A DNA stretch of 62,987 nt, counting the filler, from Rhabdomonas costata (Eukaryota): the NCBI GenBank assembly GCA_019059605.1. It is 26 parts of 26 records of this genome, joined end to end, with 100 filler letters (N's around TTAATTAATTAA, not from the genome) between each part and the next. Parts side by side here need not be neighbours in the genome. Positions count along the whole stretch, not along the records: positions 31,584 to 33,905 come from JAHMHO010004032.1; 25 more parts are not named here. The stretch is one strand, 5' to 3'. Below are positions 2,827 through 62,987 of this stretch, piece after piece (position 1 is the stretch's first letter; each line of letters starts with the position of its first letter). The notes beneath the pieces were generated by a model. The model saw only the letters and a program-made list of their open reading frames with translations, was not told the origin of the DNA and made no database searches. The position numbers and the translations under genes were made by a program.

Positions 2827-4579
2827 CTTCTTTATGGCAATCTTCTTGGTAAGGCTGAAACTCTCGAAGTGGTGGAGCACCTGCAAAACATCCGTGCACC
2901 TCGCCCACGCCGAACGTAACCGAAGGCTAAAGAAACGGGTGCTGAGCATGTCTTTGCATTCTCACGTAACGCCGAGGTCATTTTCCGGCGCAATGGCCTT
3001 CAACAGCAGCACGAACCAAACCCAAACGAGCACGTGAAAGGGGCCCAAGACACCTGAGCGTCGGTGTCCTCCACAAAAACCCAGAAGGACTGCATCGAGC
3101 CGTGAAGTCCTGCAAGGTTCGCAGAAAATGGAGCCGGTGGCCACCCATTAAAAACTGGAATGCTAATGCAACAACGAACCCAATTAAATTCGCAACCCAT
3201 GCCGGAAAGACTGTCTGAAAAAGAAATGCTGCAGAAAACCCACGGAAAGCCACCCCCATTTCCCGTCACGGCTGCAGCGCATTTCAGCTGAAGGGGGTGT
3301 TTCATGAAGAGAGAAATATAAACATGTTGCATCACCGTCGCTCCACTCGAAATTAGGAGTGATGGTCAGCTTAACGCGAAGGATGTTCCGGGTGATCGGC
3401 TGGCCCACCACTTCGAGCCGGAGCGAGGGAAACAGGTTCGAAAGGTGCTTGATCAGGGAGCCATACCTAGAAGGAAAAGGTGCAAATTTCCCATTTATGG
3501 AAAATGGGGACTCCGTTGATCTGAGCAAAGTTTGCCGCAAAAGTCGTGATGCAACTCTTCGGAACAACTCGAATAAGAAAGTTTTCTTCAATAAAAAACT
3601 CTCCCTCAGTCTGCTGTTCTCAAGATCAAAAAAAAGCCGCAACTCCCACCGTGTGTTTGTAATGAGCTTCCCGATCTCCATCTCGTCCATGTCCGCAAGT
3701 TTGGACATGGTCACCTGCGAGGCGGAGGAATACACGAGTCACGGAAACGTTCTGTGCAAAAATAAGAACTTCACGTGTGAGCTGGAGGAAGTCGGGGGGG
3801 CGTGGCTCATACCCGCCTGGTCTCCAACTTCTGAATGATGTCATCAGGTAAGATGTTGAATTGCCTCAAGGGATGGTTGTAGTACCAAGATTGCTGTGCA
3901 GAAACAGGTGGTACAAACCATAATTCCCGGGAAGATGACCGTGCAAGATGGCCTCTTCCACCCTGACCTGTGACTTTTGCACTGTTCCAATGAATTTTTT
4001 CCGTCCATTTTACCACTAAAATCTTCCAAGCAACTTCATCATCAAATGAAGATGTCAAAACTCAGCAGAATCCTGACAAACAGGAACGATGCACAGGTCA
4101 GTGCCAATAAGACGCCGCTGGATTTGAATGACGGACAAAATCGACACCACTTCCCCGGCAGAAGGAGCTGGAGGAGGAGGAGGGTAGCAACGGCATCTGC
4201 ACCCTCTCAACGGAGATGCAGTACTTCAGGAAGGTCACCGCGTTTCCTGCCCAGTTGTGCTGCAAGGAAGTCTCAAATAACGCCCTATTAAAAAGTAGAG
4301 AACGTGCAAGTGAGAGGAAAGGGGGTGAAGCTCTGAGCTGGGCTGAAAAGCTGATGCGTTACTGCAGGGAACGGCTTTCCTTTGGCTGAGATAGAGGTGG
4401 GGGTTGGGGGTGCCGGCGCTGTGAAAGAGAGAGGGAGAGAAAAGAGAGACAGAGTGTGTGAGTGAAGAAGTGAGAGAACCGGAATATTCGGCCCACGTTT
4501 TGCATGATGTAGTTCACGTCAGACACCAGAGCGGGGTTGCGAATGCGGGCCTGCGAGATGGACGACTGCAGGAGCACAT
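2827..4579 (-). CDS. Ski2-like helicase of ASCC3/Brr2 type, Sec63 domain, 7 exons, partial
   Basis: Spliced product: VLLQSSISQARIRNPALVSDVNYIMQNVGRIFR|ALFETSLQHNW...|WYYNHPLRQF...|...QPITRNILRVKLTITPNFEWSD|...FWVFVEDTD|VLHHFESFSL. All junctions GT-AG and in phase. Looks closer to ASCC3/Slh1. Confidence 0.88.
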
Positions 4580-6075
4580 CTGCAACCAAGCCACCGCCAC
4601 TACCACTACACCTCAAGATCAAAGAGCTGCCATTTGAGCACAGACCAAAGCGGAGTGTGTACACCCATATTCAGCACTAGACTGAGAGCAGACAGAGACA
4701 GAGAATGTGAAGCAAAGACAGGGGTAATGGCCATCGTATACACCAACACANNNNNNNNNNNNNNNNNNNNNNNNNNNNNNNNNNNNNNNNNNNNTTAATT
4801 AATTAANNNNNNNNNNNNNNNNNNNNNNNNNNNNNNNNNNNNNNNNNNNNGCAATAAGATTTTTGCGAGGAAAATTTTTTCACCGATATAAAGGAGGGGC
4901 TCAGTACAACCCGCAACGTCTGTACCACTCCAGCCTCATAGGATGCCACAAACTGTCTAGATGCAACCAAAAGCCAAATTTCAGTTAGCTGTTTGGTGTG
5001 AGCTATATGCATCTAAGTAGTGCTGGTGATGGTGCGTGCCAGCTACGGTGCAATGGTGGTGCAGACTGGTCAGTGGAGAAGGAGAAATGGTGGTGACGTC
5101 GCTAACCCAGCGATGGTGAGGCATGACCGGTCACCGATGTAACAACAGTTCCATAGCAGCAGCTGGGGGACACGCAATAAGGCAAATCGGACAGCCGCAA
5201 GGCAAAACAGGGCAAAACATTCCAAAGCTTAGTTTTAGACAATGGTACTATTAGAAAGTGTTTTTGTGTCCTCTCATATCAATTCAGGAGCACATTGTCC
5301 AGAAATTGATGGAGGGAATGTAAAAAGACTGCGAATCAAAAAATCAAGCATACATATTCTCCAAAAATATAGGTAGGAGTAAGCTAGCTAGTTAGCCAGA
5401 TATACAGTGGAGACCTCTGTGTGTGTGATGCGGGAGGCCCGCGACGAAATCCAAGATCACGGGCAAGTGTAGAGAACTTCCCCCCACGATTCCCCAACAG
5501 TGACATTCCATTCCCACTAAGAGGTCTACCTGCGCAATTTTCCGAAACAGCACAGAAATGTTAAAAATTACATGCTTCCAAAATTATATTCTATAAATGG
5601 GAAGCATACTGGATGCTGGATGCTCTGCTGCATTTTCGTCTTAAATGGCGAATTTGCCTTAACGGCTGTCCATTTTAGATATCAGGAGATTGGGTTACGG
5701 TCCCCTTGCTGACGTTCTGTTAGAAAGAGGGATAGGTAACCTTTGCTACCCCCACTTAAGGCCAAAAGCTGCGCTGTTGTTCTTTGTTGCCCTGATAAAG
5801 ACAACCTTTCTTAAACTTTATTAAAGAGTGTCCAATTTGGGTCTGCTGGCCAGTCCGGCGTTCACTATCGTTCACTATCGACCCTTGGACCAAAGTCCCA
5901 AAGTCTCCGAAATGGGACCAATTGTTTCCTTGTTTGTTTCACTGGTTTTGTAAGTCCGGAGAGGGCTCACAGAGCTCACACGGCTCCTGTTTCCCCGTCT
6001 CCTTCCGCTTCTCCCTTTTCAGCTTCGGATTTTATTGCCTTGGCCTTTGCCTTTCCGGAGTTTTTCTTTCCGATA

Positions 6076-7176
6076 ATGAGCTTTTCTTCTCTTGGTGTCG
6101 AAATGCGCAGCAAGCGCTCTGCTGCGTGTGCTGCGTCTGAAAACGGGAAAATTTTCATCTTTGGAGGATATGACGGCAACGCGCACCTCACCAGCTGCGA
6201 AGTGTTTGACCCAAGCAGCAACACTTTCACGTTGCTTCCCAAGACTATGGGCAGTGGACGCGATGCAGCCTGTGCTGTTGCCCAAGGAGGCCGAACATTC
6301 CTCTTTGGAGGATTTGATGGGATGGCCCTCGCCAGTTGCGAAGTGTTTGACCCCAGCAACAACACTTTCACGATGCTGCCTGCAACGATGCATAGCAAGC
6401 GAGATGGCGCCTGCGCTGTTGCCCAAAGTGGAAAAATTTACATCTTTGGAGGAAGAGACGGCCCCGAGTTCCACTCCAATGCCGAAGTGTTCGACCCGAG
6501 CAGCAACAGTTTCGTGACGCTGCCCACGATGTGCTCCAAGCGCTACGGTGCCTGTGCTGTTGCCGAAGGTGGTCGAATTTTTATATTTGGAGGAAGAAAT
6601 GGCAGCTTGTACCTCTCCAATTGCGAAGTGTTTGACCCCAGCAGCAACACTTTCGCGATGCTTCCCACGGTGATGTGCAGCAAGCGCAGTCGTGCCTGTG
6701 CTTTCACTCACAAAGGCCGAGTTTTCATTTTTGCAGGGTTTGATGACAGCGCTTTCCTTTCTAGTTGCGAAATGTTTGACCCCAGCGACAGCACTTTTAC
6801 TATGCTGCCTGCTCCAATGTGCAGCAAGCGGAGGAGTGCCTGTTGTGGTGCCCTGGGAGGCCGAATTTTTGTCTTTGGAGGAAAGGACGGCAGCAGACCT
6901 CTCTCCAGTTGCGAAGTGTTTGTGCCGCCACCTGAGGACCCGTTCCTTCAAGTCAAACGACTCCAGGCTGAGCTTGGTCGCCTTCAGGTTCGTTACGAAA
7001 GGCTTGAGCAGAAAGAGCAAGAAGCCAAGCTTGCCTTGACGACCTGCAGGCAGGAAAAGCAGCAAAGTGAGGATTTGCTTGCCGCTGCAAAGCAAGAGAA
7101 TCGCTTGCTTCGAGAGCAGCTTTCTTCCCAGCAACCCAGCCTTTTTGACCCCCAAGCGCCATATGCACCCCAAAAA
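6076..7176 (+). CDS. Kelch-repeat protein (6 blades) with C-terminal coiled coil; intronless, 3' truncated
   Basis: Six repeats of G(K/R)xF(I/L/V)F(G/A)GxxG...SCEVFDPSSNTFTMLP, followed by a heptad-rich segment (VKRLQAELGRLQVRYERLEQKEQEAK). Confidence 0.92.
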
Positions 7177-7724
7177 NNNNNNNNNNNNNNNNNNNNNNNN
7201 NNNNNNNNNNNNNNNNNNNNTTAATTAATTAANNNNNNNNNNNNNNNNNNNNNNNNNNNNNNNNNNNNNNNNNNNNGGGTGGGGTTTGTTGCCAATATGG
7301 GCCATATCACTTCACATCACTTCCTATCAGCTGTATCCCATGAAAATTGCTTCTGTAATTCGATGAGCCAACTTGACTCGCGCTTCAGATCCGTAGTCGG
7401 GGGCCCTCCGCCCTCGAAGGGCTTCTCTTCTGGATCCGTCTCCCCAGAATCCCCTCCCTGCTCAAGACGAACATTGTTTGAGCAGGGAAACTCGGTGTTT
7501 CGGGACTTCTTCAAGGCGCCCGCTCCTTTTGATTGGTTGCACTCCCATAACATAATGACATTCTCCTCAAAAACCCGCCTTTGCTAAGCGGGGCTGCCGT
7601 GTGTACCACCCTCTCTCCTTTCGCAGATGGAAAGCCAGCTCCCACAGACTCTATTTACGCTTTGATATGCTTTTCCTGTATAACCTGCTCCCCGCCTTCT
7701 CACACAACCCTTGCTGAAGCCAAT

Positions 7725-9413
7725 ATGCCTGGCATCGCTTTTCGGAAGGCTTCAGCAGTGTGCAACCTTTTTGCCACCAACCTGCTCTCCCTGAAAGTCC
7801 TGCTGACGATCTCCTTTATTGCATTGATGGTCGTCGCGGGGTTTCTGGGGTTCTACCTGACCTTCGTGCAGAGCCAGCGGAGCCTGCTTAACCTTGCCGA
7901 GGTGGACATGCAGGAGGCGGCCAGCAGTGTGATGCAGCTGATCGAGTCCAAAGTTCAGACAGGCCATCTGCTGAACAACGCCGAGGCGCTGTACTTCCTT
8001 CGGGCTGGGATTCGGATAGACAACTTTGTGACGGCGTGGAAGCTGTGGTGGCCGATGACCTTGACCAACATGGTGGGAGTAGCCTCGGCGTACATTGCGT
8101 CTATGCTTGTTTGGCCTGGTCCTCCGGGTCATGGGCGAATGGTGGCTTGTGGGCCAGCGAGTGGGATTGCAATTTTCTGCAACTTCAACGCCACAGTATG
8201 CAACGACACGGAGAACTTCCCGGGGAGCAACTGCAGGTCTGTGAGGGATTGTCCGGGGGCGTGTTTTTTTTTACTTTCATGGAAGCCGAGTGTTGTGCAG
8301 AAGCTGGTTTGAAGAGAGACGATTTTCCACACAGTCCAAACGATGGGATAGGAAGTACATGAGTATTGCTGGTATTGTGGACAGCCAAACGGCAGCTGGG
8401 GTCCGAGAGTAGACCCAGTGCAGGTGCTCTACCTTAATCAGAAAACGGTACACCTTTTTTTTTACGGAATGTCTAAAAAAATAGAGAGAAAGATAATTCT
8501 GGCATCTCATCTTTGTGCACCTTTCCACATACGATGCCAATACATGCTGGGCTCCCGTGCGATATGAGTGTTGCCTTGCGGCCGAAACTGGCAAGCGTGG
8601 AAATACTACCATTAATAAGGTAAGTTATTGCATTCTAGAAAACGGGAAACGGAAAAACCAAAAGGGACGAGTTCGGCAGATGACCCTCGCATTAAAACGT
8701 GCGGCCGCCATCTCTTCGGGAATACCAGCACACGAAAAGCCAAAGAGACAAGGAACACAAAGAAGAAAGTAGACTGGAGGCAGGAAATGAAGGGCGTGGG
8801 TGCATGGGTCTGGTGGTGTGAGTATCGATTCTTGCATAAGCCTAGTGGTGAGAGAGAGCGCACGTGTCCCAAAACTTTCGCCGCAGCGTTGTGGGGACCG
8901 AGACCTACGCCCTAGACCACACCACGCTGATGCCCAGGTGGGACCAAATGACAGCATTCAAGCCCAACGGGGATGCCATGACCAACCCTGGGATGGTGAC
9001 TGGAACCTACGCGCGCAGCGTGGCCTCGGGGTGGCGCTCCAGCTCTACCAACCTATTCAACCCGGGGTACTCCGAGATTTACTTCAGTCCAAGCGTGCCT
9101 TCCTTCCTGATTCTCGAGTCCAACGTGTGCGTTCTGGACGGGCCGGGAGGCAGCTGTGTGGGGCAGCTCAACAAGGACCTCCTTCTAACGTTCCTGGGGG
9201 ACTTCCTTGGGGACCTGGCCCGGCACAGTCACCTGCTGTCGCAAGGGGGTCGGGCGTTCAGCTACGAGCGGAACGGCAACCTCACTGGGTCCAGCCATGG
9301 GGTGGTGTTCATGTCATACCGCAACGGGGTAAACGTAAGGCTGGCGATCTGGGAGAGCGATGACGAACTCATATCGAAGACGGGGGAGCTGCTTCGAACC
9401 AGCCTGTGCACGG
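7725..9413 (+). CDS. Receptor cyclase-family protein: N-terminal TM + Cache-like extracellular domain; exons 7725-8236, 8887-9413
   Basis: TM helix LKVLLTISFIALMVVAGFLGFYLTF. Exon 2 is a close paralogue of 34065-34597 (NLFNPxYSEIYF, FLGDFL, GGRAFSYExNGNLTGxSHG, RLAxWESDD) with the same intron positions and phases. Confidence 0.75.
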
Positions 9414-9700
9414 GTGAGACACCACTCTCTTGTTCTTTTCAATTTGAGAAAGTTTTTGCCAAGGTCTCGGAGTTGTGGTTTGTTTTGAGGCCCCGAGCCC
9501 TTGAACAGTCAGAAGCCCAATATACGGGACTTTCTGGTTTGGCTTTGGCTTTGTGAAGAACTTTTTCAGCCCTGGAAAAGTTCTTCACAAACCCAAACCC
9601 NNNNNNNNNNNNNNNNNNNNNNNNNNNNNNNNNNNNNNNNNNNNTTAATTAATTAANNNNNNNNNNNNNNNNNNNNNNNNNNNNNNNNNNNNNNNNNNNN

Positions 9701-26900: not shown

Positions 26901-27808
26901 ACGAGCGAGCCGAGAGAGAGTGTCACCATCATTTTCGTTGGCTGCATAGCATTCTCTGTGAATCTCACTCTCTCATTTCTCCCTTTCCTCACGGTCGGCA
27001 TGGCCATGTGTTGTGTACATCGTACGTCGTCCTCTTTTGCTTTGAGTTCAATTGCACTCCCTTCCATTTTCACCCTTCCTCCTTCGTCATCACCTCACCC
27101 CCCTCTCTCCCCAGTGATGCACCTGTTCTTCTTTATTTCCTTCTTTCTGGGGAATGTGCAATGGATGTTGAGGACGGCTGCCATTGGAAGGGCTGTGCAC
27201 AGTGCAGTCAGCCGACCCTGCCGACCGATGTAGCTATAGCCGTGAGCTTTTTCAAACCCAAGGGTTCGGCTGGGATAGGTTTCCCCGTATTGACTCACGC
27301 AGCCGCCTCCCTTTTGGTCGAAAAAAAGAAGGCAGTGCCTGTGATTCACTCCACCTCTTTAAGATTAAACGTTCAAAGAAAAATCAGCAAACAAAGGAAG
27401 AAAAGTTTCCTAATTTTGATTGCTTCGGTGTTTGACGGATGTTCTCGACAGTAGGGTTGGGTTAGGTTCAGGAAAGGGCAGCGGATTTTTTGCCGGGCGT
27501 CACAGAGCCATGCTCGTTTTCAGCACGGATCGAATGAGTTACAGGTTTCATAGTGATATGTTTTGTGGATGAATAGGAAGGGTAATCTTTCGGCTCCGAG
27601 GGAGGGGCACAGTACATTCTGAACTTTGGCTTTATCTATGCTAATGCGCTGGCTGAAGCAGTTGTTTTTGCAGCAGGGGTACAGGCACTCAATGTGGAAA
27701 GGGATCAGATCTCTTCTCGACAGTCATTAAGCCTTTGACAAGCACCCGGGTCTACCCGGGACTATTTAGCTCCGCCGCTTTCTGGAGCCTTCCCTGAAAC
27801 ATGCGTTG

Positions 27809-30461: not shown

Positions 30462-31696
30462 GTGCGCGTGGGTTTGTTGTGGGGAGAGAGTCCTGGGCTG
30501 CTGCGATTGATGTGACACCTTCCCTCTTTATGGCCCAGAGAAAGGATGCTCGAAATGCATCTTTTACGGGATCATGCTCGCAAACCTCAACAACGCTTTA
30601 TATCCACAGCGGAGTTAAGGAAGGAGGAACTTCAGATTCGGCGAATTTTTGTTGAAATAGCACCATTTGTTCATTCAGAGGGCTTAAAATATACTCACCT
30701 TGTCAACCATGTCAGCACAGTTGCATCGTACGCCCGTAAGTGTTGAGGTACTTTTTCTGGGATCTGGAGTTGATTTCCCGACTGGTATTGTCATTACCTG
30801 GTTTTTTTTGCTTCTCACTTTTTACATGGCGTTTGCCATATGCAGAAGGCGGAGGTCATAGATTCGGTGGATGCTTTATGCTCCGATGGGTGCAATTGTG
30901 TTTCCTGCTTGATAACGTGCTCCGCAAATAGATGTACTCCATCTCATCGCAGGACCCAATATTCAATCATGGGTCTGGTGGGTGACCCAGCTGTTAACCC
31001 AAATTGTTAAGCCGAACACCGGCATTAAGACTGAAATCTGAGACTTGTTTGCTGCAGGTCAGCTGAACAGCGCACGGGCTGAAAGACCCACACTCTGCAA
31101 AGAGGATGATCTCTGTGTGTGCAATAGTCTGCATGTCTCATTGTGTTCGGTGGTGGTCCCGGCGGCATGCCACCCGCGGACGGGTGAAGGGCTCGGGAGA
31201 TGAGTTATGTTACAACAACGTCCGGATCTACGCAAGATCTAAAGCACAACCACAGCGGGGTCATTTACAGTAATGTCTTCCCAGCTCGGCGGTGGCTGCG
31301 CTCCACCGGGCTGGCAGGGCTCTCTGTGGGGTGCCGTACCGCGGGGACCTCGGCGGGGCTGCGCTCCACGGCTGCGGCTCCGCGGGAAGGTGCGTCGGTT
31401 GTGGGAGGACTTCTCGTCCATCTGCCAGCCCTGCACGCATACTCCGCGCGGCTTGGTTCGTGGTCGACGCTCCTTCGGCCAGANNNNNNNNNNNNNNNNN
31501 NNNNNNNNNNNNNNNNNNNNNNNNNNNTTAATTAATTAANNNNNNNNNNNNNNNNNNNNNNNNNNNNNNNNNNNNNNNNNNNNGTTTTTTGGTACTTTTT
31601 GCGCGTGCGTGGTGGCATCGCGCACGAACAGAGGGTGTGGTTCTTAGCCTTTCGGACCTCTCCCGTTCTCGCTCTATCCATCTGTGTTTCAAATAG

Positions 31697-33580
31697 AGCT
31701 GCTGTCTCGGTGCAACTTCTGGCCGTACTTCACTGGGCTTCCGGGGTCTGCTCAGCTGCTGGAGCAGCTGCAGGCGTGTATGATAAGGCTTTCGCAGCTG
31801 GGAATGGAACTTATCCCGCTGCGCAGGCTCACTGTTGACCCGTTGTTGGTGCTGGAAGGCCCCGAACCCAACTTGGTACCGTTGGTCAGCTTCGTGCCAG
31901 TCGCAGCTTTTCTTTGTTGGTTGTCACACTTTTCGTCTCAAGTTTTTGCTTCTGATGGTTGCCATTCTCATCGTCGTGATCTGATGTGCGTTTCTGTGAT
32001 TGATTCACCGTGTCTCATTTTTATGACAGGCTGTGTCTTGTTTTTCGGGGATATCGCTGGAGTGGGGAGCATTGTCCTCGGTGCGCGCACTTGCAGGTTG
32101 CAATGCATGCCCACTCGTTGCTGGAATTGGATCCTGCCCGCCTCCCCCGCAACCGCACCGCCATTCCCACGTACCCCAGCCAACTCCAGCGGCTCCTTCC
32201 TCTCAAAGACGGCCGAGTGGTGCTTGCGCGGCCCATCCGGGCAGAGGACGAGCCCGCTCACCTGCGCTTCCTGCACCGGCTTTCACCGACGGACCGCTAC
32301 TACCGCTTCTTCAACGTCCGCAGCGAGTTCTTTCATAGCGAAGTCCTGTGGTTTACCCAGATTGACTATGGTTGTGCAACGCCACCCGTCGCGCATCGTC
32401 TTTTTTTAATCGTTTATTTTTAGGATTTGCCTCTAGCTCTATGTCTGCCGTGTGGTCGATGTTTCTTCGGGCGATCTTCAGCAGCTGGTTTGCTGCAGGC
32501 TGGCATGTGAAGGCTGCAGATTTTTGTTGTTTTGTTTTCCGCATTACACCCGTCCCCATACCATATAAGGGGCGCGATGTTTGATTTGATCTTGGGACGT
32601 GGACAGTGGGTATGATAAAGAAGGTATAAGGTTTATAGGTAGTGGCTGAGGTTAGAGATGAGAACGGGTGGGGGGAATTTCGGGAAGTGGGGCTATAAAG
32701 TTGACGTGAAAGCCCGAGGGTAACTCTTGAGACGGGAGGTTGAGCGGCGTGTTAAAACGCAGGAAGGTTGTCCTCTGCAGCGCAAAGCTTCAACACAATG
32801 GATTGTTGTGTGTTGTCTCGCGAGAAGTTTCTATATATAATCCTTGCTCCTGTGTGCCTGTTGCAGACCGTGAGCTGGCTCTGATCGCCGTGGCTCCCAA
32901 CCCTGAGTATGCTGTGGAGGATGGGTCTCGCCTTCCATTTCCATTTGCTTACTGTGCTTCACTTCTGTAGTCTGCATGCGGTGGGTGGCGCAATTTTGCA
33001 GTCGCAGGTTGACAACAACCGGATGCACCCGGTAACAGATGCCTCCATTTGTGTCTGTTTTTTTGCTTGGTACTTGTCTGTTAGGCAACAGAGCGCCTAA
33101 AACACCCCTCCGGACGCGCGCTCGCATACATAAGCCTCCCTACTCCCAGCCGAGTGTTATTTGATGCATTGCACCATTGTTCGCTATCATTTGTGAATTC
33201 TATATGCCAACACCCCACCAACGCCGTTGGGATGCAATAGGTGGCCCAAACTCGTCCTAGTGGTGGTTTTCAGCGACTCTTTTACGAAAAGGGATCCGCT
33301 GGTCATGGACACGGTTGGGGTTGTCCGAGCTGTCGACGACCTTGCCGGGAACAGCGCGGAGTTTGCCTTGGTTGTCCTCGGGAGCTATAAGCAACAAGGC
33401 CTGGGCTACGCGCTGATGCAGATGCTGATCTCCGTCCTCCGCAGTAAGGGCCTGGATGAGGTCCAGGGGTTGGTCTTGAAGGAGAACGAGCCTATGATTG
33501 GACTGTGTGAGAAACTCGGGTTCACTGTAGAGACGTATGCCGAGGACCGGACGATTGTGGAGGTTCGACTGAAGCTTTGA
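31697..33580 (+). CDS. PatZ/YfiQ/Pka-type protein lysine acetyltransferase, C-terminal part (end of ATP-grasp-like domain + GNAT); exons 31697-31875, 32097-32370, 32867-32906, 33274 or 33292-33580
   Basis: RLSQL...VDPLLV|...AIPTYPSQLQRLLPLKDGRVVLARPIRAEDEP...DRYYRFF...FTQIDYD|RELALIAV|...GVVRA...AEFALVV...KQQGLGYALM...GLVLKENEPMIGLCEKLGF...VRLKL* is colinear with the bacterial PatZ C-terminus. Confidence 0.9.
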
Positions 33581-34064
33581 TAGCTTCGGTGTCGTTCCCT
33601 TATATGTCTACATGAGAATTGGGTGCAGCGGAGGGGCCAGAAATGCGCATCTGCCAGCCCAAAGCGAGAGGTTGGGTTGCTGGTGGGTGGAGAAAAATGC
33701 ACCGAGAAGAAGGGCTGTAATGTCCCTGAAGTGAAATAACATACACACAAAGGTGGTCTAACATCTCTGATGTTATTTGCCATTTATCATTGAACTGCAA
33801 ATGCAACTGAAATCATATCCATTATGACGAGCGGATTCCTCAAGAGAATGGCATAATTCGAGCCTACTGCCTGAACAATCAAGGTGGAGGGAAACAAACA
33901 AACCCNNNNNNNNNNNNNNNNNNNNNNNNNNNNNNNNNNNNNNNNNNNNTTAATTAATTAANNNNNNNNNNNNNNNNNNNNNNNNNNNNNNNNNNNNNNN
34001 NNNNNGTTGGTTGGGGTAGCCACCCATGGTCATGTACCGTCGATCATCTCGGTCTTTTTTGCAG

Positions 34065-36156
34065 CGTCTATGGAATGGAGGTGTACTTTTTGGACCCGGT
34101 TACTCTGATGCCAGTTTTCGAAAACCCTGTGGCGCTGGAGACGACGGACCTCGATCCCATGCACCACTCCGGAATGCTCAGTGGATCCTACACCCGCGCT
34201 CTCAGCACCGGCTGGCGAGCCAGTCCAGGCAACCTATTCAACCCAGCCTACTCCGAGATCTACTTCACACCCACGCAGCCCACCTACCTGATCCTTGAGG
34301 TCAGCGTGTGCATGGTAGACAGCCCGGTGGGCGGCCGCTGTGTGGGGCAGATCGCGAAGGCCCTTTTGCTGAAGTTCCTGGGGGACTTCCTTCTCGGCCT
34401 GGTGACGCAGAGCAGCCTGCTGTCCAAAGGGGGCCGAGCGTTCAGCTATGAGATGAACGGCAACCTAACGGGCGCCAGCCACGGGTCGTTTTTCGTCAGC
34501 ACACCGGATGGCACGAATGCGCGGCTGGCTGTATGGGAGAGCGATGATTGTATCACGGCGAGAGCAGGGCAGCTTTTACGGCGCTGGCTTGCTTCCGGTA
34601 TGCAACGTCTTCACTCCTGGGTACACTTTGCATCGAATCTTCTGGTGTGTGCCCAGTCCGTTTTATTTGGACACGCTGAGGGTTCTTCCCTCTGGTTTGC
34701 GCAGGTTCTTCAGACCCTACCGTGGTGCACCCTGCCGTCAAGTTCACCTTCTTCTTCGGCAAAGAGGAGTACGAGCACCTTGGGGAAGTTATGACCCTTC
34801 CCTATGGGCTGCTGTGGCGGGTCAGCGTGGTGATCTCGGTGACTCAGCTCTTCGCGGACATCAGGGCGGCGGCCTTCCGGATGTTGGGGTACACTGCTGG
34901 GGCGATCGCAGTGCTGGCGGTGAGTGCGGGGCTGCTGATCTCGTACCTGGTGACAGCGCCTCTGATCCGGCTGAGCCAGCAGATGGAGGAGGTCGCGGAG
35001 ATGAACCTGGACGTGATCCAGCAGAAGCGGAGCCGGTTCAAGGAGATCGCGGACATCCAGGCATTCTTTGGAACAATGGTGGACAAGCTGACGGTACGAT
35101 ACGGATTCCAAGCCTTTGTCAAATTTTTCAATGAAAATGAATTTTTGGGACGATGAAAAGTCAGGCAGCAGCGCACAGAATGTTCAGGGGTTGTTTCAGC
35201 CGAAAATTTATTTTCATGAAAATCCGATTCCAAGATACCGTGCACCTCCCTTATCACCGCAAGCGTGTGGCTGCCTCCTTTTCCGCAGTCACTGTTACGT
35301 TGGGACATTGAATTGAACTGAACTTTTTTTGGGTCCACGTTGAACTTCGAGGAACTTTGAGCATCCCGGTCTGTGACGAAAGCGCTATGATGTTGCCTGG
35401 GATTCTGGGCTTCATTGCACGCATGCTACGACATTTTAACAATTTACAATTGCTTGTCCCCCTGACTGACTTCGCGTAGGAATTCAGGGCCTACCTTCCC
35501 GAGGCGGTGCTGGGGTCCGGGGAAGCGGAGACAACCACAAAACTTGAGGGTGGCCGCGGCGCCACCCCACACGACAATCCGCGACGCGTGGCTCCAGAGC
35601 GACGCATCACCTCGAGTTGCACCTCTGGGTGCTCCCGCGAGGAGCTCACAGAGTCCGTAACCATCCGCAGCTCGGGCGATGGGTACCCCTCGGCAAACGC
35701 CGGAGATTCTCGCAGTGGGTCCCGTTGCGATGCACCACGAAAGGTTTCCTACGTACACCGGCAGGTCGGCGCCTTAAGCTACCGCACGGTATCTGTGCTG
35801 CAGATGGACATCTCGGGCTTCCACAAACTTGTTCATGACGAGGCCACACTGATCTCTACTCACTCGGCGGTAATCCAGTCCACCAGCCAGGTATTCGGAG
35901 GAAGAACCGCCCTCCTTTGACCGATCTACCCGACAACCTTAGTGGCAACCTTAGCATGCCCGCTTCCCTTCTGTTCACAGGCTATTCAGGCCAGCGGGGG
36001 CCTCTCCACGCCTTTCTCGGGGGACAAGGTGCTGGCCTTCTGGAACATCCGCACGCTTCGCTCGGACCACGCCATGCGGTGCGTCGCATCTGCGCAGGAG
36101 CTGTTCCAGGCCACGCAGAAGCTGAGCCTGAGAGTCCGTCTGGCCTGCACGGGGGG
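34065..36156 (+). CDS. Receptor-type cyclase-like protein: Cache-like sensor, TM, HAMP, class III cyclase-like domain; exons 34065-34597, 34705-35093, 35480-35890, 35981-36156
   Basis: TM (AGAIAVLAVSAGLLISYLV), HAMP (TAPLIRLSQQMEEVAEM...FKEIADIQAFFGTM), EFRAYLP linker, and cyclase motifs VSVLQMDISGF and FSGDKVLAFWN. All junctions GT-AG. Confidence 0.85.
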
Positions 36157-41277: not shown

Positions 41278-43601
41278 ACAGCAGGGGCGCGAGGTGCCTT
41301 TCACACTGGCCACTGGCTGGACGCACTTATCCGCTGAATACCAGCAAGGATATGAGCTCCCCGAAGACGCAGCCGCTGCAGAAATGGTTGGTTTGGCGTC
41401 CACCTCTCCTTCCCTCTTCCCCTCGCACTCGCTTCCTTGGGCACTGCTTATATCTTTGGGCTCGTAAAAGCACCAGAATTGTGCACATCTCCGTGCAAGT
41501 ACCCACGCAGAACGCATCGTGCATGGCATCCCAATGGCATTGTGCTTGTCATCCGGGCTCGGGAAACCGTGCAGCTGAACAATTGCGGACATCAAACAAA
41601 GCCATAGGACACTCAACACAGCCAACGGCTAGTGCATCGTGGAGCGCAATCGCGATCCTGGTCAAAACCAAGTGTGCACGGTTGCCAGGCGTGCAAGCTG
41701 GAGCAGTGGTTCCAGACGAAGACAGCAAGGCAAATGCTGACTGGTGTGAACCAAGTGCCAAGTTAAAAACAAGAGCTCAACACAAACCCGCACACGCTTA
41801 CAGAAAGAAGCACAGAGGGAACAACACAGCCTCAGCATCCAAAAAAAAGACACAGCGGGCCATGGTTAAGGCAAAGGAACGGGCGGGGAAAGCAGCAACA
41901 AAGGAGCAGCGGCTGCAGCCTTCGATGCCAGCGCTGCCCTCAGTTGCCTGAGCTCCTTCTGCTGCCGCAGGACTTCCCCGACGACCTCACGCGCCTCAGC
42001 GCTGACCTTCGGCTGGGCCTCCTCGTCCAGCAGCTCGTGGGCAACCGCCAGACGGACCAGCTGCCGCACAAACCCAGCATTGAGAAGAACTGGCTTTCCC
42101 CGCAGCCGCAGCACATGCCGCAATGCGGCAAGAAGCGGGAGCTTCTGGGTGAGCATGAGGTGCGCCGTGACCAAGGCGGCGCTGCGGTTCACCCCGGCTG
42201 CGCAGTGGACCAGGACTTTCCGGCTGGGTCCGGGCGAGAGAGGGCCTGGGCTTTCAGCTGCGCATGGGGGAGAGTGGTTGAAATCGCGCATTTGAAGATG
42301 TGAGTCAATGAACCGTAGTGAAACCTGTCCAAATTGGAAATCCCTCGGTTCGAAGGTCACGGAAGACCAACGGTTTCCTTGTCGCGAACCTCTGGGCAAT
42401 GGGGTCGGAAGCGCCGTGCATATATTCGTACAGAAACTTTGCATGTAACATTACTTCGGGAAAATACTTCTCTTTTGGCGGATACCAACTTTGCGAGAGA
42501 TCAAATATCTTGTTTATCTTGTTTAAGCGGTCACTGGCATCACTCTTTCATCCCTTGCCCTCGGGAGGGTGGGAGTGGAAGGGTTCGCTACCGAAGTCGT
42601 GCCATATATACCTCGATTTCCTATGAAACGTCAATATTCACGAATTAACCAACAGGGAGACGGCTGACCTATGAGATCGCTTCGGGACGTTTCAGGACAT
42701 CATCCTTCTAGCCTTCGACAAGCAGGAAAGAATCCGAAGGCAGTACGCCCATGTTCCCGGAAACAGTACCTCTGGTGTCACCTGGCTCCAGCGGACTGCC
42801 CTGGCGGGAGGGCTGCAGTGTGCTGTTGATCACCTGACTGACCTCTTCCAGGTGCAGCCCAAGCAGGTCGTAGACTGGCTCATCCTCTGCTGCTATCACG
42901 ACCCGATGAATCCCTCTCACGGTATATTTTCGAGAGGAAGGTCCATACAGATCGTCTCCACAGCAGCACACTACAGCCGCAACCCTATCAGCAACCAACT
43001 TGCCAAGCTGTGAAGCATCCGCAAAGGACCCCAGAAGCAGCCCTGGGCTGACCTCGCATGGCGAGAGGGCTCGGCTGCTCCATGACCCGTTCTCGTCCAC
43101 GGGGTACTCGCGAAGAGCCTCCGCTGCAAGTTCCAGCAGGGGCTGCAACAATGTGTGCTCCCTACGCAGCAGCTCGGCGTGGCTGGAAAGCTGCTCCGCC
43201 GCTGCCCTGGCCGCCTCGTTGCTCTGCACCCGCAGACAGCTGTTGCAGAACCCCAGCTTTTCCACCGAACCCAGCCGAGAGCACCCACTGACCTGGCACT
43301 TTGTCGCCATTCCAGGAAGCGTGCGAAAAAGAAAACGTCCCCTCCTGTGAAAATTTACAGACCCCTTTTCATGCAGGCTGCGTTGCCAAATAGTTTAGGG
43401 AGTTAAGCGCATCCACGGAACCCATACAAAAACCCGAAGTTGACGGGCGAGCCCACAAAACTGGTTGGCTTGGCACAGCAGGGGCGCGAGGTGCCTTTCA
43501 CACTGGCCACTGGCTGGACGCACTTATCCGCTGAATACCAGCAAGGATATGAGCTCCCCGAAGACGCAGCCGCTGCAGAAATGGTTGGTTTGGCGTCCAC
43601 C
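41278..43601. repeat. Exact 127-bp direct terminal repeat of a contig (41278-41404 = 43475-43601)
   Basis: The first and last 127 nt of the contig are identical, the usual signature of a de Bruijn loop edge at k=127. Implied unit length is 2197 bp. Confidence 0.93.
41866..43310 (-). CDS. Dual-specificity protein phosphatase with N-terminal A20-type zinc finger; complete, 310 aa; exons 43310-42770, 42257-41866
   Basis: CQVSGCSRLGSVEKLGFCNSC (C-x4-C-x11-C-x2-C), PCEVSPGLLLGS, general acid AEDEP, P-loop VLVHCAAGVNRSA, and NAGFVRQL. Exon lengths 541 + 392 = 933 nt. Confidence 0.92.
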
Positions 43602-44893: not shown

Positions 44894-45446
44894 CTCTGCG
44901 CGAGCCTGGCGCACAAAGCTGACCACCTCCTGAAGACACCCCCCACACCTGGCAGAACATTCACACAAAAGGGAAAGGCTTCCCCAGCTCCCCATCGCTT
45001 CGTCCTCAGTCCTCATGAGAGTCTCCGGTTACAGTCACCCATATATATGGCTGATGCAATCCCCCAACAACATCAGTCACAGCGATCCCTCCGCGGGCAC
45101 CCTTTTTTTTTGTTTTGTCACAGCTCAGCAACACACACACAGCACAGTCGTCAAACGCACCTACACAGACACGTGTACAAAGCGTGTACAAAGCTGGTAA
45201 GATTGGGGCCAAGCTGCATGTTCTCCTGGCCCTTTGCTACGCTGGGGAGGCCTGTGGAGAAGCCAATTTAAATGGTCTATAGTTCCCTGATTCCTGTTGA
45301 CTGACCCAGCTCTGGCGGCCGACAAATGCCCATAATGACCTCCAGAACAGCGAGAGTGGTAAAACTGGACAAAAGCATACCTCCGTGGAGAGATAATCCC
45401 ACAGCCCATCGGTGCCGATCACGAGAAACTCGTCCGTGGGTTGAAG
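44894..45446 (-). CDS. PP2C/PPM-family phosphatase fragment; exons 45446-45381, 44929-44894
   Basis: LQPTDEFLVIGTDGLWDYLSTE|EVVSFVRQARAE contains the PP2C DGLWD motif, with GT-AG boundaries. Confidence 0.8.
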
Positions 45447-48313: not shown

Positions 48314-49692
48314 GTGCGCACATCCACGTGCACTTGCAGCTCTCATGCGTGCAGCGGCAGTTCTCTCTCTCTCTCTCTCTCATGCTCCCTTCGCGATTGC
48401 CCTCCCTCCTGTCATCGCCCCCGCGTTAGTAAGGCGGTAGTGGTTGCAAANNNNNNNNNNNNNNNNNNNNNNNNNNNNNNNNNNNNNNNNNNNNTTAATT
48501 AATTAANNNNNNNNNNNNNNNNNNNNNNNNNNNNNNNNNNNNNNNNNNNNTGTGGGTGTGTTTGGGGTTGTGTGAACACCTTCACCAGTCTGACTGGTCG
48601 GAAAGCAGCAGAAGTCGTGGGAAGCTGTTTATGGTATCATGTTACAGCAGAGCAAAAATTGCTAATTCCCTTCTCTCTGCAGCTAGGGTGTGCAGAGCGC
48701 ATTCCTCCTGTCCTCCATCGTTCATCCATCCTTCCTGGTCCTCATTTGTTTGTTTGAAGATTTGACTTCTTTGCAAAGCCACATCGTTCGAAGTGCCGCC
48801 GTGGATGCCTTTCCTTTTATCCCGTCATGTGTTCTCCAGGCGCTGGGCTGCTCGCAGCTGTCGTTTTTGAAGCCCCAGCCTCAGCACCCCTGCCCTATAG
48901 CAGCAGAGCTGAAACTCGCAGACCTGCTGTGAGAATGCTTTTGTAAACCAACGGAAAAGAAACGCCGACTCGTGGCAGGTTTCTTATAAACGTTTACAAG
49001 TACCTAGACATCGAACTACTGTGTGTGATGTATCTCATCGACAAGGGATACCAGTCTATGCTGTCTCTGTGTGAGAGGCGAATGGTGGATGTGTATGCAC
49101 CAATGTGGGTGGGGCACAGCCTGGACCTGCAGCTCCTGAGCTCCCGCCCGTCGAGGTGTGCAGTCATGCCCATGGGTGCGCTGTGCTGCGTCGTGCAGAG
49201 GATATATTGGTAATCACAAATGCATCCAAATAAGTTTTAAGAAAACGTAGTACAGTCGTTTTTGAATACATATTGATTTTGATATATGTGGGGTATGTTC
49301 CGCAGCATGGCCAATAAATTTCCAGCACCGTGCAACGGGACATATGACGCATCCCAGGTCAGAACAGAAAGCCTGTTATTCAGCGGAAAGCAACCGTTGC
49401 GCAACACCAACACAGTCACCCTGAAGCGAAGTCTCGATTATCGCTAGTCCGATCCAAAGTCCGAAGAACCCTTTTGAGCCTTTCTCCGTTTGGATAGACA
49501 GATTAGAGTTAAGGCAGCCGTGGTAACTTCGCGTTCGTACCTTCGCTTCACGTCTTGACAGTCGATGCTGGTAACTCTCATTTGTGTAAAGTACGGGGTG
49601 ATTGGGATTTAATTCGTTTGCTACTGCTGCTTTCTGCTAGGCTCGCTCGGAAAATGGGATGCTATGTGCAGTTCTCCGGTCTCGTTTTGCAG

Positions 49693-50547
49693 GTGCCAAG
49701 CATTCCTGCCCTTCCCCGTGGTTTTGATGCTCCGACTCTGTTGCGGGAGGCGGAGCAGGGCAGCGTCACCGCTATAGTCGCTGTCGCCATCCTTCGTGCC
49801 TGGGGCCGCCTTCCGGGAGCTGGCCTATCGCCGGATCGCCCTGGTGCGCTGGCGATGCTGCGATCTCCAGCGGTGGCTGCGTATCCAGTGGCCACGGCGC
49901 TGCGAGACATTTTCAGTGGTGGTCCCAGGTCGTCGGGAGAATGCCTTAGGGTACTTCGGGAGCACGCGGACTGGGACGACCTCACGGCATTGTGGGCGCT
50001 TGGAGTGTGCCGAAAATTCGGCCCGAGTTTCGCTCCCGGACTGCCCCCGGAGAATCGCGAGGAAGCATTTGCCTTATTCCGACTGGCGGCAGAGCAGGGC
50101 CACGCGGCCGCGCAGCATCATGTCGGAGCGGCCTACAGCTTGGGCGAGGGGACGGCTCGAGATTTGGCCGCGGCCGGGATATGGATTCGCAGGGCCGCAG
50201 AGCAGGGCTACGCCCAGGCGCAGGTCAACTTCGGGACCATGTACCAAAATGGCGACGGGGTGGAAAGGAAGCTGATGAAGGCCGCGGAGTGGTACCGCAA
50301 GGCGGCGGAGCAGGGCTACGCGGACGGGCAGTTCTATTTGGGGCAGTGCTATCAGATGGGCTACGGGGTGGCAAAGAACCTGCCGGAGGCCGTGAAGTGG
50401 TTCCGCAAGGCGGCGGACCAAGGGCAGGTGGAAGCCAGAGATGCGCTCAGGTTTCTGCAGTGTTGTGTGAGCAGTTACGTGTTGGCTTTTCTCTCGACTG
50501 ATGTTTTCTCTATTCGCGAGCCACTACTGCACTTGGGTCCGTGCTAA
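49693..50547 (+). CDS. Sel1-like repeat protein
   Basis: Repeats include AAEQGHAAAQ, AAEQGYAQAQVNFGTMYQNGDGV...AAEWYRKAAEQGYADGQFYLGQCY...GYGV...AVKWFRKAADQG. Both ends are uncertain. Confidence 0.88.
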   Translation: MPSIPALPRGFDAPTLLREAEQGSVTAIVAVAILRAWGRLPGAGLSPDRPGALAMLRSPAVAAYPVATALRDIFSGGPRSSGECLRVLREHADWDDLTALWALGVCRKFGPSFAPGLPPENREEAFALFRLAAEQGHAAAQHHVGAAYSLGEGTARDLAAAGIWIRRAAEQGYAQAQVNFGTMYQNGDGVERKLMKAAEWYRKAAEQGYADGQFYLGQCYQMGYGVAKNLPEAVKWFRKAADQGQVEARDALRFLQCCVSSYVLAFLSTDVFSIREPLLHLGPC

Positions 50548-58627: not shown

Positions 58628-60934
58628 GTGTGTATTGTGTATACACCTGGGGAGAGGGGGACAACCATAGTCCCTTAAATTCGCGGAGTTAAACACAGCA
58701 GTCAAGTTATAGTGATGTCTTCTTTCGTTCTCTTTGTGACGATTCTCTCCTTTCCCCCTCATCATACCCGTACGGCTCCCCCACCTTTCTCAATACAAAA
58801 CGGCCTCGAAAGCGCGTCTCATATGCGACCTTCGACTATACAATTCGATTTTCTCTCTGGTCCTTCCCAAACCGCCAACGTTTTCTTTACCCCAACTTGA
58901 ATCTCTTCTCACTCCGCGCGCTGGCCCCCCGACTTTTTTCACCAAGCTGGATATAGCAAATTGCTTTTGGTCAATCTCTCTTCCTCCTGCCGTGTGTGGG
59001 TGCTTCACTCTCCAGTTGAAAGTTTCCGAAGGAAACTGCAGTTTCTCCTGCATCACCGTGTTTTCTCAACTGCTAGGCTTTCTATATTCCTTTCCCACCT
59101 TTTTGGCCCATCAATTCTTCTCTCTCTCTATGGCTCTCATCTCTCTCTCTAGATATTGTCTGACGACTCTGTTTCCAGATGTTTCGCCTTTGAGCTGTCT
59201 TCTTCCCGTTTCGACTTGATAGATTCGTCCGGGGCCCAGAAGAATGTGGCGCCCAAGACTCAAGACATGCGTTAAAGCAACAGCTCAAGGTTTTTCTGCG
59301 GTATCTTCAAGCTGATTCAGTGCAGGATGTTGGGCCCGCTTTCCCTCCACGCTTACACACGCAGGGAAGACCCTCCCTCTCCCTTGCTGTGGTTTGCGTC
59401 GGATGTGTTAAAGGGTTTCAAAGGAGGAAAGGACGGGGAGGTTTGTGCTGTCTTGCATGTGTAGGAGGGCGGAGCCCTTTTGTTGGCAACATGGTGAGCG
59501 TTCAAGCAACACGAGGGCTCAGCATCATTTGTTTCTTTTTTTTTTGCACCAGTGTCTCTCATCTACGCTTGGGTTCACAGCTTCACAGGGTGCTGGATGG
59601 GAAACGATCTTTTTTCTCATACCTTTTTGTTCTCTCTTCTGAAACGCCTTTTTTCAACAAACCTTTTTGCACTCAACAGGGCACTCAACAGACACAACCA
59701 AGTCAAAAAACCCAGCATGCTGAAGGGCGCAGCCACTCATGCGTTTGTTCCTTTAAGGAAGAAATGCTGGGTGCTCCTCTCTTTCGTTCACGCCGGCGTT
59801 GCATTGTTTTTCGTTCGTTTCTTGATTTGCAGGGAAAGAGAGAAAGGGGAGGTGCACTGAGTTTATGGGAATATGACCACTGTACCACAGCTGCGGTACT
59901 ACAGCTGCGACAAGCGCTTCGCCCCGAACCCATAATTGGGCAATAATGAGATTTGGTAGGGGTGGTCATCCCAGGGTCACAAACACGAAGCTCCTACACA
60001 ACTTCGCTGTTGTGTGAAAGGGAATATTAGGGTTTCTCGGGGTCTCACCGCTGAGCGGGGTTCCAACTATGATCTGGCGCGGGTCATTTAAAAGTGTGAG
60101 TGACAATTGAGAGGATAATGCGGCAAATAGGAATTACCATTGACCCTCATTTACTATTTACTGTCCGAAAAAGGAAAAACTCCAGAAACGCCGCACACAA
60201 GTCCCGTTCCATGAGGGAAACAATATGTGCGCCTTTGGAGAAGGTGCACCCACCAACCTGTTCAAAAGCACCATTTCAAAATTATCAGAAATTGCACGGC
60301 AGCCCCTTGGTACTAGGATGCTGATGGTTTCCATTCGCGATTTTCTGCCGATTGCAGAGAAATGTGCTGCCCTCCTAACTGAAGCTCATTTCCTCTCTTC
60401 CTTGCTTGTCTGTTCGTGGTGACGTGTTTTTTTCTGCAATGGCGGCCAGCTTCCGCTCATCGACGGTGTACACCATGACCGACGCCACAGAGTCCAGCCT
60501 GTGTCTGTCCGCGCGCAGCATGAGCACCCTAAGCTCCTGCCCCGCCCCCGACCGCATCGTGGAGTNNNNNNNNNNNNNNNNNNNNNNNNNNNNNNNNNNN
60601 NNNNNNNNNTTAATTAATTAANNNNNNNNNNNNNNNNNNNNNNNNNNNNNNNNNNNNNNNNNNNNTCTTGAGCAAGTTGATATTTCTGTAATTTGCAACG
60701 AAGACGCGTGCTGTGCTGTGCTCGCGGTACTTTGTATCTGTGTCAACTTAGCTGTTGTGTGTGCCGGCAGATATTATGCAGCTAATCTCACCTCCATATG
60801 CTTGTAATTTTATTGCAGGGTGACAGAGGAGAGCAGTTCTCATTTCAATTTAACTGAACATACTGTTGACAGGCCAGAGAAATGTTTCAAACGCTGTTTT
60901 CGGTCTTCTGTGGGTGGTTGCACTCTCTTTTAAG

Positions 60935-62091
60935 CTGGCTCAGCAGTACAACACGGCGCTGACGATGGCAGGCATGGTGCAGACCATGGTGTTTGACAAC
61001 GGAATCGCCACGATTGGGCAGCGCAGCCTTAGTGCTGCGATGCTGATGGCCGGGCTGGTGGACCAGCTCTTTCTGATGACCTCCTCCGACCTGGCCCAGC
61101 AGCGCGCCACGGCTGCCTCCAACTATCTTACCGTGCTGACTACTAGCCTGGGAAGCAGCCTCGACGCCCTGGTATCGGTGATAAATGGCCTGAACAGCGG
61201 GTTGCTGGGAGGCGGGGAAAGCGCCCTTCTGGTGCAGTACTCCTCCACCAGCCCGACCCGGGGCGATGCCCTGGGCAACAACACCGTCCTCCTGAGTGCA
61301 CTTCCAGGCTGCCCCCTCGGCCCTCTCTCTGCCAACTGCAGCGCTCTTAGCGACATCCTCTCCGCTGCTGCGAAGGCCTTTGCTGGAGGCGTTGGCGGGT
61401 TTCAGGGAATCTCCTACACCGGCGAGTCTGCCTTTCTCGGGCACTGTCCCATTCCAAACTCCGCCCTGGCGGTGGTGTACGTGGTGCCCTTCAAGCAGAG
61501 GCAGGCCAGCTTCCTCCTAACCACGGTGGACGCTGTGTACAATACCAACCTAACCAGCTGGACCGGGGACCTGTTGATGCAGTCGAAGTACAACCCCGGT
61601 GTAGTTTTGACGGGCAGCTTTTCCCCGTGCACGGTGGGGAGCTGCGCCTTCGACCCCGCCGGGGCGGCCGCACTGCAGTCCCCCTCGGCGACCTCCATTG
61701 GACTTCCCAGCTACGACGTCCAAAGCTCCCTGGCCGTGGCTGGGGAGATGCCCAACCTGAACGCCAGCGTGGTGATGGAGTTCTTCATGACCGACCCCAC
61801 CCTCACAGGGATCCCTAGCTCCTCGTGGTCCTACCACTCCGTCCGCGGCCAGCTTCTGCAGCAGCTGGGGCTGCAGAGCACACGGATGAACACCGACCTG
61901 CAGGGGACCGCGGAGCTGCTGTTTGTAGAGAAGTTTATGAATGGAACGGTGGAGCAGGTGGACTATCTCACCACTCCGAAGTTCACCGCGGAGTGCGCGC
62001 CGCACTGCGGGGTCACGGCTGCCTCCGCCCAGCTTCCCGTTCGAGCGGCCGTGCAGTGCATCAACGGCACCGGGGTGATGACGGACTACCG
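60935..62091 (+). CDS. Large extracellular Cache-like sensor exon of a membrane receptor
   Basis: Open exon of about 385 codons with repeated Cache-like modules (GISYTGESAFLGHCPIPNSALAVVYVVP; GLPSYDVQSSLAVAGEMPNLNASVVMEF; GTGVMTDYR), Cys pairs and N-glycosylation sequons. Confidence 0.6.
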
Positions 62092-62987
62092 GTACGCTCG
62101 CAGTCCCTTGCCTCAGTTCTGTTGTTGTTTGGTCCATGCTCTTGTTGTGAGAGGATTGGAGAATAATCAAAGCAACTGCTTTACTGCGGTCGGTGCCTTT
62201 GAACATCCTTTCGCTATGTGTGACGTTTCGTATACAATTTTCTCTTACAATTCATTCATTTATTGTTCCTCCTTCATGTTACTTCCAGGGGCAAGCTTGT
62301 TCTCGCTGCGACGGTGTGCTTGCCGCGGCTCGACTTGGGTACGTTTCCTGCCCCTACCCCTACCCCCTACCCAGAGCATTGTGGAGTCTTCCCAACATGC
62401 CCCGATGATTTCAGTATGCAATGTTACAGAAGAAGGGTAGGGTAGGGTAGGGTAGGGACGGACTTGAAATACCGCGGTGGACACTATTATTTGTATAACT
62501 TATGACGCTCGCATTCGGTGTGCCTTTTTATCCAAGAAGTGAGACACTTTAGGACTTACTGGGGGGTTTTCGAGGGGGAGAAAATTTACTCTGTGCGGCG
62601 GAGACCTCTCTTTGTTCTGAAAAGCATCCCACCAAAAAAATTGTCAATGGAACTCGATGGTATCTCAAATCACCTGAACTGCGCCTTTATATTGATTTGA
62701 GTCTTTAAGTTCACTTCACACCCAGCTCGGTGTATGTGTGTGATGATATCCCTTTGCGGTTGGGAGGTGGGAGTGCGCTGGTTCGGGCAGGCCCTCAGCA
62801 AAAGTCCAATGTTCGGGACATGGTCCTGCTTGAGGCCGAGGGCCTGAAGCGCCGCGTCGCCGCGTCGAACACGCGGGGGACTCTCACTGCGGTACGGATG
62901 ACCGACACGATGGCGACCTGGCGGGCGTACTCGGCATACCGCCGTGCGAAGTACAAAGTCGAGGTTGTCGCCAGCTTAACCAACAAA

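Follow-up and report, generated by a model that had tools for sequence, protein, structure and literature searches.

A putative intron-bearing gene for a Pat/PatZ-like lysine acetyltransferase on a contig of Rhabdomonas costata

INTRODUCTION

Has a eukaryote taken up a bacterial-type lysine acetyltransferase of the Pat/PatZ kind and kept it as a nuclear gene? The question is raised by one contig, at positions 31584-33905, in a stretch of 62,987 bases from the genome assembly of Rhabdomonas costata (the whole stretch is called the window here). The contig encodes, in several pieces, a peptide that resembles the C-terminal part of bacterial Pat proteins. From its sequence, we think it probable that it holds the 3′ part of a nuclear, intron-bearing gene whose product, a type I GNAT lysine acetyltransferase like Pat/PatZ, has bacterial ancestry.

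Eukaryotes have a sirtuin 'eraser' of acyl-CoA synthetase acetylation. We know of no dedicated eukaryotic 'writer' of this mark that has been established. In PMC8556138 and PMC12184503 the Pat/PatZ kind of type I GNAT is treated as a bacterial enzyme. Literature searches, which did not extend to supplements, found no description of a eukaryotic Pat or PatZ. PMC7790372 does not mention Pat, PatZ, YfiQ or ATP-grasp in its text, nor does PMC5499015 mention ATP-grasp, CoA ligase or acetyl-CoA synthetase, in both cases leaving aside the supplement. These searches fit the statement, in an earlier sequence-only reading of the locus, that this is 'not a standard eukaryotic enzyme'.

RESULTS

The contig and its place in the window

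The window is not one locus but 26 separate contigs of ∼2.32 kb each, artificially chained in roughly descending order of size. A linker word, TTAATTAATTAA, is present in 25 copies spaced ∼2,425 bases apart (0 expected by chance), each centred in a run of 100 N bases, with linkers at 2369, 4795 and so on to 60610. Since the contigs are unrelated, sequence adjoining the contig in the chain says nothing on the Pat-like gene, and synteny of neighbours cannot be assumed. The whole gene fragment lies within the one unplaced 2.3-kb contig. The contig begins inside an intron, and the 5′ exons are missing because its edge falls there; the 5′ part of the gene, ∼600 residues, is outside the contig. In-frame translation 5′ of 31697 has no likeness to Pat.

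Exon-intron model

Exon pieces were located by stop-to-stop frames and direct translation and were then joined by coordinates (Table 1). Three coding pieces lie in different frames, with a 40-nt piece among them. Joining the four exons across three GT-AG introns (221, 496 and 367 nt) gives one open frame of 265 codons plus a stop. The intervening sequences themselves carry stops and change the frame. Exon 1 starts in phase 2, its first two bases finishing a codon begun in the missing upstream exon, and micro-exon 3 provides the conserved DRE(M/L)A(F/L)IA block. The acceptor contexts are ttgcag, ttgcag and ttttcag for introns 1-3, and aaatag for the intron before exon 1.

Table 1. Predicted features of the contig that carries the Pat-like gene fragment
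Feature	Position	Strand	Remarks
Upstream intron, 3′ end	31584-31696	+	Acceptor AG 31695-31696; contig edge at linker
Exon 1 (visible part), 179 nt	31697-31875	+	C-terminal end of ATP-grasp domain (acyl-CoA-synthetase-like regulatory part); colinear alignment
Intron 1, 221 nt, GT..AG	31876-32096	+	GC 0.489
Exon 2, 274 nt	32097-32370	+	Linker and N-terminal GNAT half; RPIRAEDEP, YYRFF, TQIDY; region aligned to PatZ gating motif
Intron 2, 496 nt, GT..AG, phase 1	32371-32866	+	Interrupts conserved TQIDY/DRE motif
Exon 3, 40-nt micro-exon	32867-32906	+	Encodes (D)RELALIAVAPNP; aligned to DREMAFIA block conserved in bacterial Pat
Intron 3, 367 nt, GT..AG, phase 2	32907-33273	+	Other in-frame acceptor would extend intron to 33291
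Exon 4, 307 nt	33274-33580	+	C-terminal GNAT half; NEPM...KLGF
Catalytic Glu codon GAG	33359-33361	+	In exon 4
P-loop G-L-G	33398-33406	+	In exon 4
Stop TGA	33578-33580	+	End of exon 4
3′ flank, presumed 3′ untranslated region	33581-33905	+	GC 0.462; no long frame; runs to contig end

The junctions were tested by taking all GT..AG pairs up to 90 nt from the proposed sites that kept the frame open, and scoring each against a profile of 16 bacterial Pats of full length. Junctions 1 and 2 as proposed came first (1 of 32 and 1 of 19), and junction 3 came second (2 of 18). At junction 2 the lead of 9.5 bits leaves no ambiguity; at junction 1 it is only 1.8 bits, since the linker there is poorly conserved. 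At intron 3 a further in-frame acceptor, 18 nt downstream and giving an exon start of 33292, scored 195.3 against 190.1 bits for the proposed site; it is ∼5 bits higher because a six-residue insertion is removed.

No Rfam family matched the contig at E ≤ 1, and self-splicing introns of group I or II are therefore not seen there; the introns are also too short for group II. GT-AG boundaries, a restored frame, restored colinearity and the lack of a self-splicing intron family together mark these, at the level of sequence, as introns of spliceosomal type. The sequence-only reading had proposed four in-phase GT-AG exons, and the 265-codon frame ending in TGA confirms them. The motifs that it listed are all present: RPIRAEDEP, YYRFF, TQIDY/DRELA (over junction 2), AEFA, KQQGLG and NEPMIGLCEKLGF. 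It had further assigned the peptide to the C-terminal part of a Pat/PatZ-type protein, with the end of an ATP-grasp domain and a GNAT domain. This is borne out by the searches described below, in which the nearest solved structure is PatZ (9it0/9isq). The wider Pat/PatZ architecture stands for the ATP-grasp end, the Pat-specific linker directly after it and the GNAT, but not for the rest of the regulatory domain, for which the window holds no other Pat exon: a search of 2183 six-frame pieces with the 16-Pat profile found nothing beyond the three known exon-bearing frames, rows at E 7-9.5 being noise. Weak tblastn rows at 27458-27526 (E 0.23) and 45284-45403 (E 0.062) gained no confirmation from the profile and were rejected.

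Homology searches

The joined peptide matched every one of the 19 homologues fetched (E ≤ 1.2e-30), the best at 4.1e-45 with 40.5% identity. It aligns end to end and colinearly with the last 230-265 residues of bacterial Pat proteins, and its identity to the relatives found is 36-46%.

Each large piece was also searched on its own. Exon 1 aligns to positions 156-208 of 221 in Pfam ATP-grasp_5 at E 0.015, under the cut-off. It raises the Pat profile score of the joined peptide by 12.8 bits, and none of 200 shuffles of exon 1 reached the real score. Exon 2, which has no match in Pfam, gave E 3.5e-14 in an exhaustive HMMER search of 1.84 billion representative proteins, with 807 matches at E ≤ 0.001. 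The two top rows (P0023 and P0061) were tandem-repeat artefacts and were discarded; the best real matches have 47-54% identity and fall at residues ∼700-800 of proteins of Pat length, ∼900 amino acids (aa). In a collection of 5.8 billion sequences, 19 proteins among 144 candidates matched exon 2 at E ≤ 0.001, and 17 of these 19 are 812-911 aa long with CoA_binding_2, Succ_CoA_lig, ATP-grasp_5 and GNAT domains. Three carry an NCBI name, that of a bacterial 'bifunctional acetate--CoA ligase family protein/GNAT family N-acetyltransferase'. The ESM Atlas gave scores of only 0.80-0.81 with exon 2 and was uninformative. Exon 4 matches Pfam Acetyltransf_1 at E 3.1e-9, as a GNAT half-domain. In NCBIfam it ranks 'acetyltransferase Pat' first, at a score far under the full-length cut-off of that model, as expected of a fragment.

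Comparison with PatZ and related proteins

The best match in the PDB for both large exons is Escherichia coli PatZ (9it0/9isq). Against 9it0_A, exon 2 aligns to residues 702-775 (E 5e-13) and exon 4 to residues 791-872 (E 8e-12), both free of gaps. The exon 2 alignment covers the stretch of the PatZ gating motif (V746-T763) without gaps, next to the ATP-grasp end. In exon 4, PatZ residues E809, F810, G822-L823-G824, N851 and K860 face identical residues. The key residue for catalysis in PatZ is E809, phosphate is coordinated by the loop G822-G824, and the acetyl-CoA ribose phosphate is stabilised by K860 (PMC12184503). By this alignment the GNAT domain is complete, with the catalytic glutamate and the acetyl-CoA phosphate-binding loop kept.

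The same order of ATP-grasp end, linker and C-terminal GNAT is found in E. coli PatZ (YfiQ/Pka) and Salmonella enterica Pat, which are type I GNATs. Judged by its sequence, the visible part of the R. costata protein is a type I GNAT of the Pat/PatZ kind. It differs from PatZ and Pat in that its gene, in a eukaryotic genome, is split by at least four predicted GT-AG introns, and relative to bacterial Pat it carries insertions close to junction 1 (4 residues) and junction 3 (6-8 residues). The nearest sequences are bacterial acetate--CoA ligase/GNAT proteins (Vibrio, Maridesulfovibrio, Marinobacter, Halomonas and others), which have the same domain set and 43-54% identity in exon 2; their open reading frames (ORFs) are uninterrupted, and none is a supported sister in the tree described below. 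Streptomyces lividans PatA (PDB 4u5y and 4nxy) has a homologous GNAT (E 7e-4 with exon 2, 5e-3 with exon 4). It is a type II protein with the GNAT N-terminal, whereas the R. costata GNAT comes after the ATP-grasp end, as in type I. In both types the regulatory domain is catalytically dead, the phosphohistidine having been lost (PMC8556138).

Composition of the contig

The exons have GC 0.593 and third-position GC (GC3) 0.733; the introns have GC 0.48-0.51. Relative synonymous codon usage (RSCU) of the exons correlates with that of six other long ORFs of the window at r = 0.76, and the leave-one-out range of those ORFs is 0.49-0.81. The tetranucleotide correlation of the contig with the other 25 is 0.798 (their range 0.686-0.872), and its GC of 0.524 is mid-range among the contigs of the window. 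All of these composition tests are weak on 2.3 kb. The other contigs encode eukaryote-type domains (Kelch, Sel1, DSPc and Sec63/Brr2-like), and no repeats are common to this contig and the other 25.

Origin

No closer relative was found in any collection searched: none exceeded 54% identity for exon 2 or 48% for exon 4, and the joined peptide stayed at the 36-46% given above. Scans of genomes and metagenomes gave 12 and 5 loci, respectively, with 43-51% identity over most of the exon and matches uninterrupted over it, and one further 23-residue piece at 65%. The genome-scan organisms are mostly marine Gammaproteobacteria (Marinobacter, Halomonas, Hahellaceae, Oleiphilaceae and Thiotrichaceae), a taxon spread biased by scan patterns that were drawn from the query.

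A maximum-likelihood tree was computed quickly from 98 rows. The 99 candidates for it were proteins of at least 600 aa and 11 ORFs from the scanned loci, and 97 of them gave alignments longer than 180 residues. Neither shorter proteins nor the two repeat artefacts were included. In this tree the R. costata peptide has an end branch of 1.3 changes per site, where the median is 0.49.

The simplest and most likely reading, on this evidence, is an old acquisition from bacteria followed by divergence, intron gain and codon amelioration, because identity to any relative is 36-46%, the branch is long, and introns and host codon usage appear to have been gained. Lateral acquisition had been proposed in the sequence-only reading. 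The relatives that have names are indeed bacterial, but the tree gives a long branch and no supported sister or donor.

DISCUSSION

Weighing the explanations

Several points weigh against a bacterially derived nuclear Pat-like gene of R. costata. Splicing and expression are predictions from the DNA. The regulatory domain is visible only as its last 40-59 residues, in an exon that alone falls under the Pfam cut-off. The case for bacterial ancestry is that the relatives look bacterial; the tree gives the peptide no supported group or sister, and therefore no donor can be named. The contig is unplaced and 2.3 kb long, and it is assigned to the main organism by composition.

That small, unplaced contig and the uniformly bacterial named relatives could also be explained by bacterial contamination, or by a bacterial pseudogene with insertions. 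We give this next to no credence. The three interruptions of 221-496 nt are bounded by GT..AG exactly where Pat colinearity resumes, they hold stops and shift the frame, and the Rfam search found no self-splicing intron (group I or II) that could account for them. The best bacterial or metagenome relative has at most 54% identity even in the best exon, and codon usage and tetranucleotides are like those of the eukaryotic contigs of the window. The sequence-only reading had argued that the introns exclude simple bacterial contamination and that the gene is domesticated; the frame shifts, stops, GT-AG bounds and Rfam result uphold the former, and codon usage like that of the other coding stretches agrees with the latter. 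The contig could instead have come from another eukaryote, be it a contaminant, prey, a symbiont or a host: it is an unplaced 2.3-kb piece that has neither linkage nor a repeat in common with the other 25, and no protein of this genome was among the database matches for a cross-check. Such a source is nevertheless improbable in our view, as GC and the tetranucleotide correlation are mid-range and GC3 and RSCU are like those of the six other ORFs, weak as these tests are.

The remaining alternatives accept a Pat-family gene and question its state or its use. It might be a decaying relic or a truncated gene, either an unexpressed Pat tail or a GNAT module only; the 3′ part alone is visible, the end branch is long (1.3 against 0.49), and conservation around junction 1 is poor. 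Yet 265 codons stay open over four exons, the catalytic and CoA-binding residues checked are all kept, GC3 is well above intron GC, as in coding sequence under selection, and the missing 5′ part is explained by a contig that ends inside an intron. We regard a relic as quite unlikely. A real Pat-family gene put to another use deserves somewhat more room, although we do not expect it: the protein could be an active fusion of an ADP-forming acyl-CoA synthetase and a GNAT, or could act on other targets such as organellar proteins. PatZ itself is described as acting on diverse substrates (PMC12184503). Against this, the gap-free alignment over the PatZ gating motif fits PatZ-like handling of substrates, and the contig itself holds nothing that bears on another use. 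A nuclear gene for a Pat/PatZ-like lysine acetyltransferase of bacterial ancestry thus remains our preferred explanation.

Proposed function

On the model of Salmonella Pat and E. coli PatZ, the 5′ exons outside the contig would supply the remainder of an NDP-forming acyl-CoA-synthetase-like regulatory domain. By the same analogy, the full protein would be a tetramer of ∼900 residues per subunit (PMC12184503, PMC8556138), in which the acyl-CoA-synthetase-like domain would bind acetyl-CoA, drive tetramer formation and activate the GNAT allosterically. The glutamate encoded at 33359-33361 may help to deprotonate the target lysine. Taking the acetyl group from acetyl-CoA, the GNAT would then acetylate AMP-forming acyl-CoA synthetases, classically Acs, at their active-site lysine, and the modified synthetase would stay off until a sirtuin reversed the mark. 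For R. costata itself we only infer such an Acs/sirtuin switch from these bacterial systems.

Other genes in the window

Two ORFs on different contigs, 8852-9556 (+) and 34069-34794 (+), have 50% identity over 209 residues (E 9e-69). The pair matched no Pfam family and nothing among 1673 database candidates, and looks like a lineage-specific multi-copy family. A HAMP/cyclase receptor considered on the contig at 34006-36330 was rejected, with Pfam HAMP at only E 0.18 and nothing for the cyclase-like part.

A long intron-free ORF at 5815-7224 (+) has six Kelch repeats (Kelch_1 E 3.7e-68) and reaches the contig end; its tail is rich in Gln, Glu and Leu and, by eye, has the look of a coiled coil. 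The catalytic half of a dual-specificity phosphatase lies at 41866-42450 (-) (DSPc E 4e-14; human DUSP26 E 3e-10). A second long ORF ∼260 nt upstream on the same strand, 42708-43394 (-), suggests another intron-split gene. The ORF at 49513-50547 (+) has four Sel1 repeats (E 2e-30) and high GC3, and 3184-3738 (-) has a weak match to the Sec63 Brl domain (E 4.5e-6), as in Brr2/ASCC3-type helicases, and is apparently broken by an intron. A 528-residue open frame at 60854-62440 (+), rich in Ala, Ser, Leu and Thr, matches no Pfam family and may be an extracellular or sensor domain.

Significance

The intron-rich structure and the large divergence are particular to the R. costata gene. In kind, it is probably one more transfer from prokaryote to eukaryote, here partly visible. 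A bolder idea, which we hold to be unlikely, is that Pat-type acetyltransferases form an unrecognised and patchily kept eukaryotic family, a dedicated writer on acyl-CoA synthetases that is perhaps organellar. Were this so, the R. costata gene would belong to that family as an old member colonised by introns, and would be no one-off import.

With several spliceosomal introns and host codon usage, the gene would show that a eukaryote has taken in, and retained, a bacterial enzyme that regulates acetate and acyl-CoA activation. Should an acetylatable Acs, a sirtuin and the missing part of the gene be found, R. costata would offer a eukaryotic setting in which a defined enzyme, and not non-enzymatic chemistry, writes the inhibitory acetyl mark on acyl-CoA synthetases.

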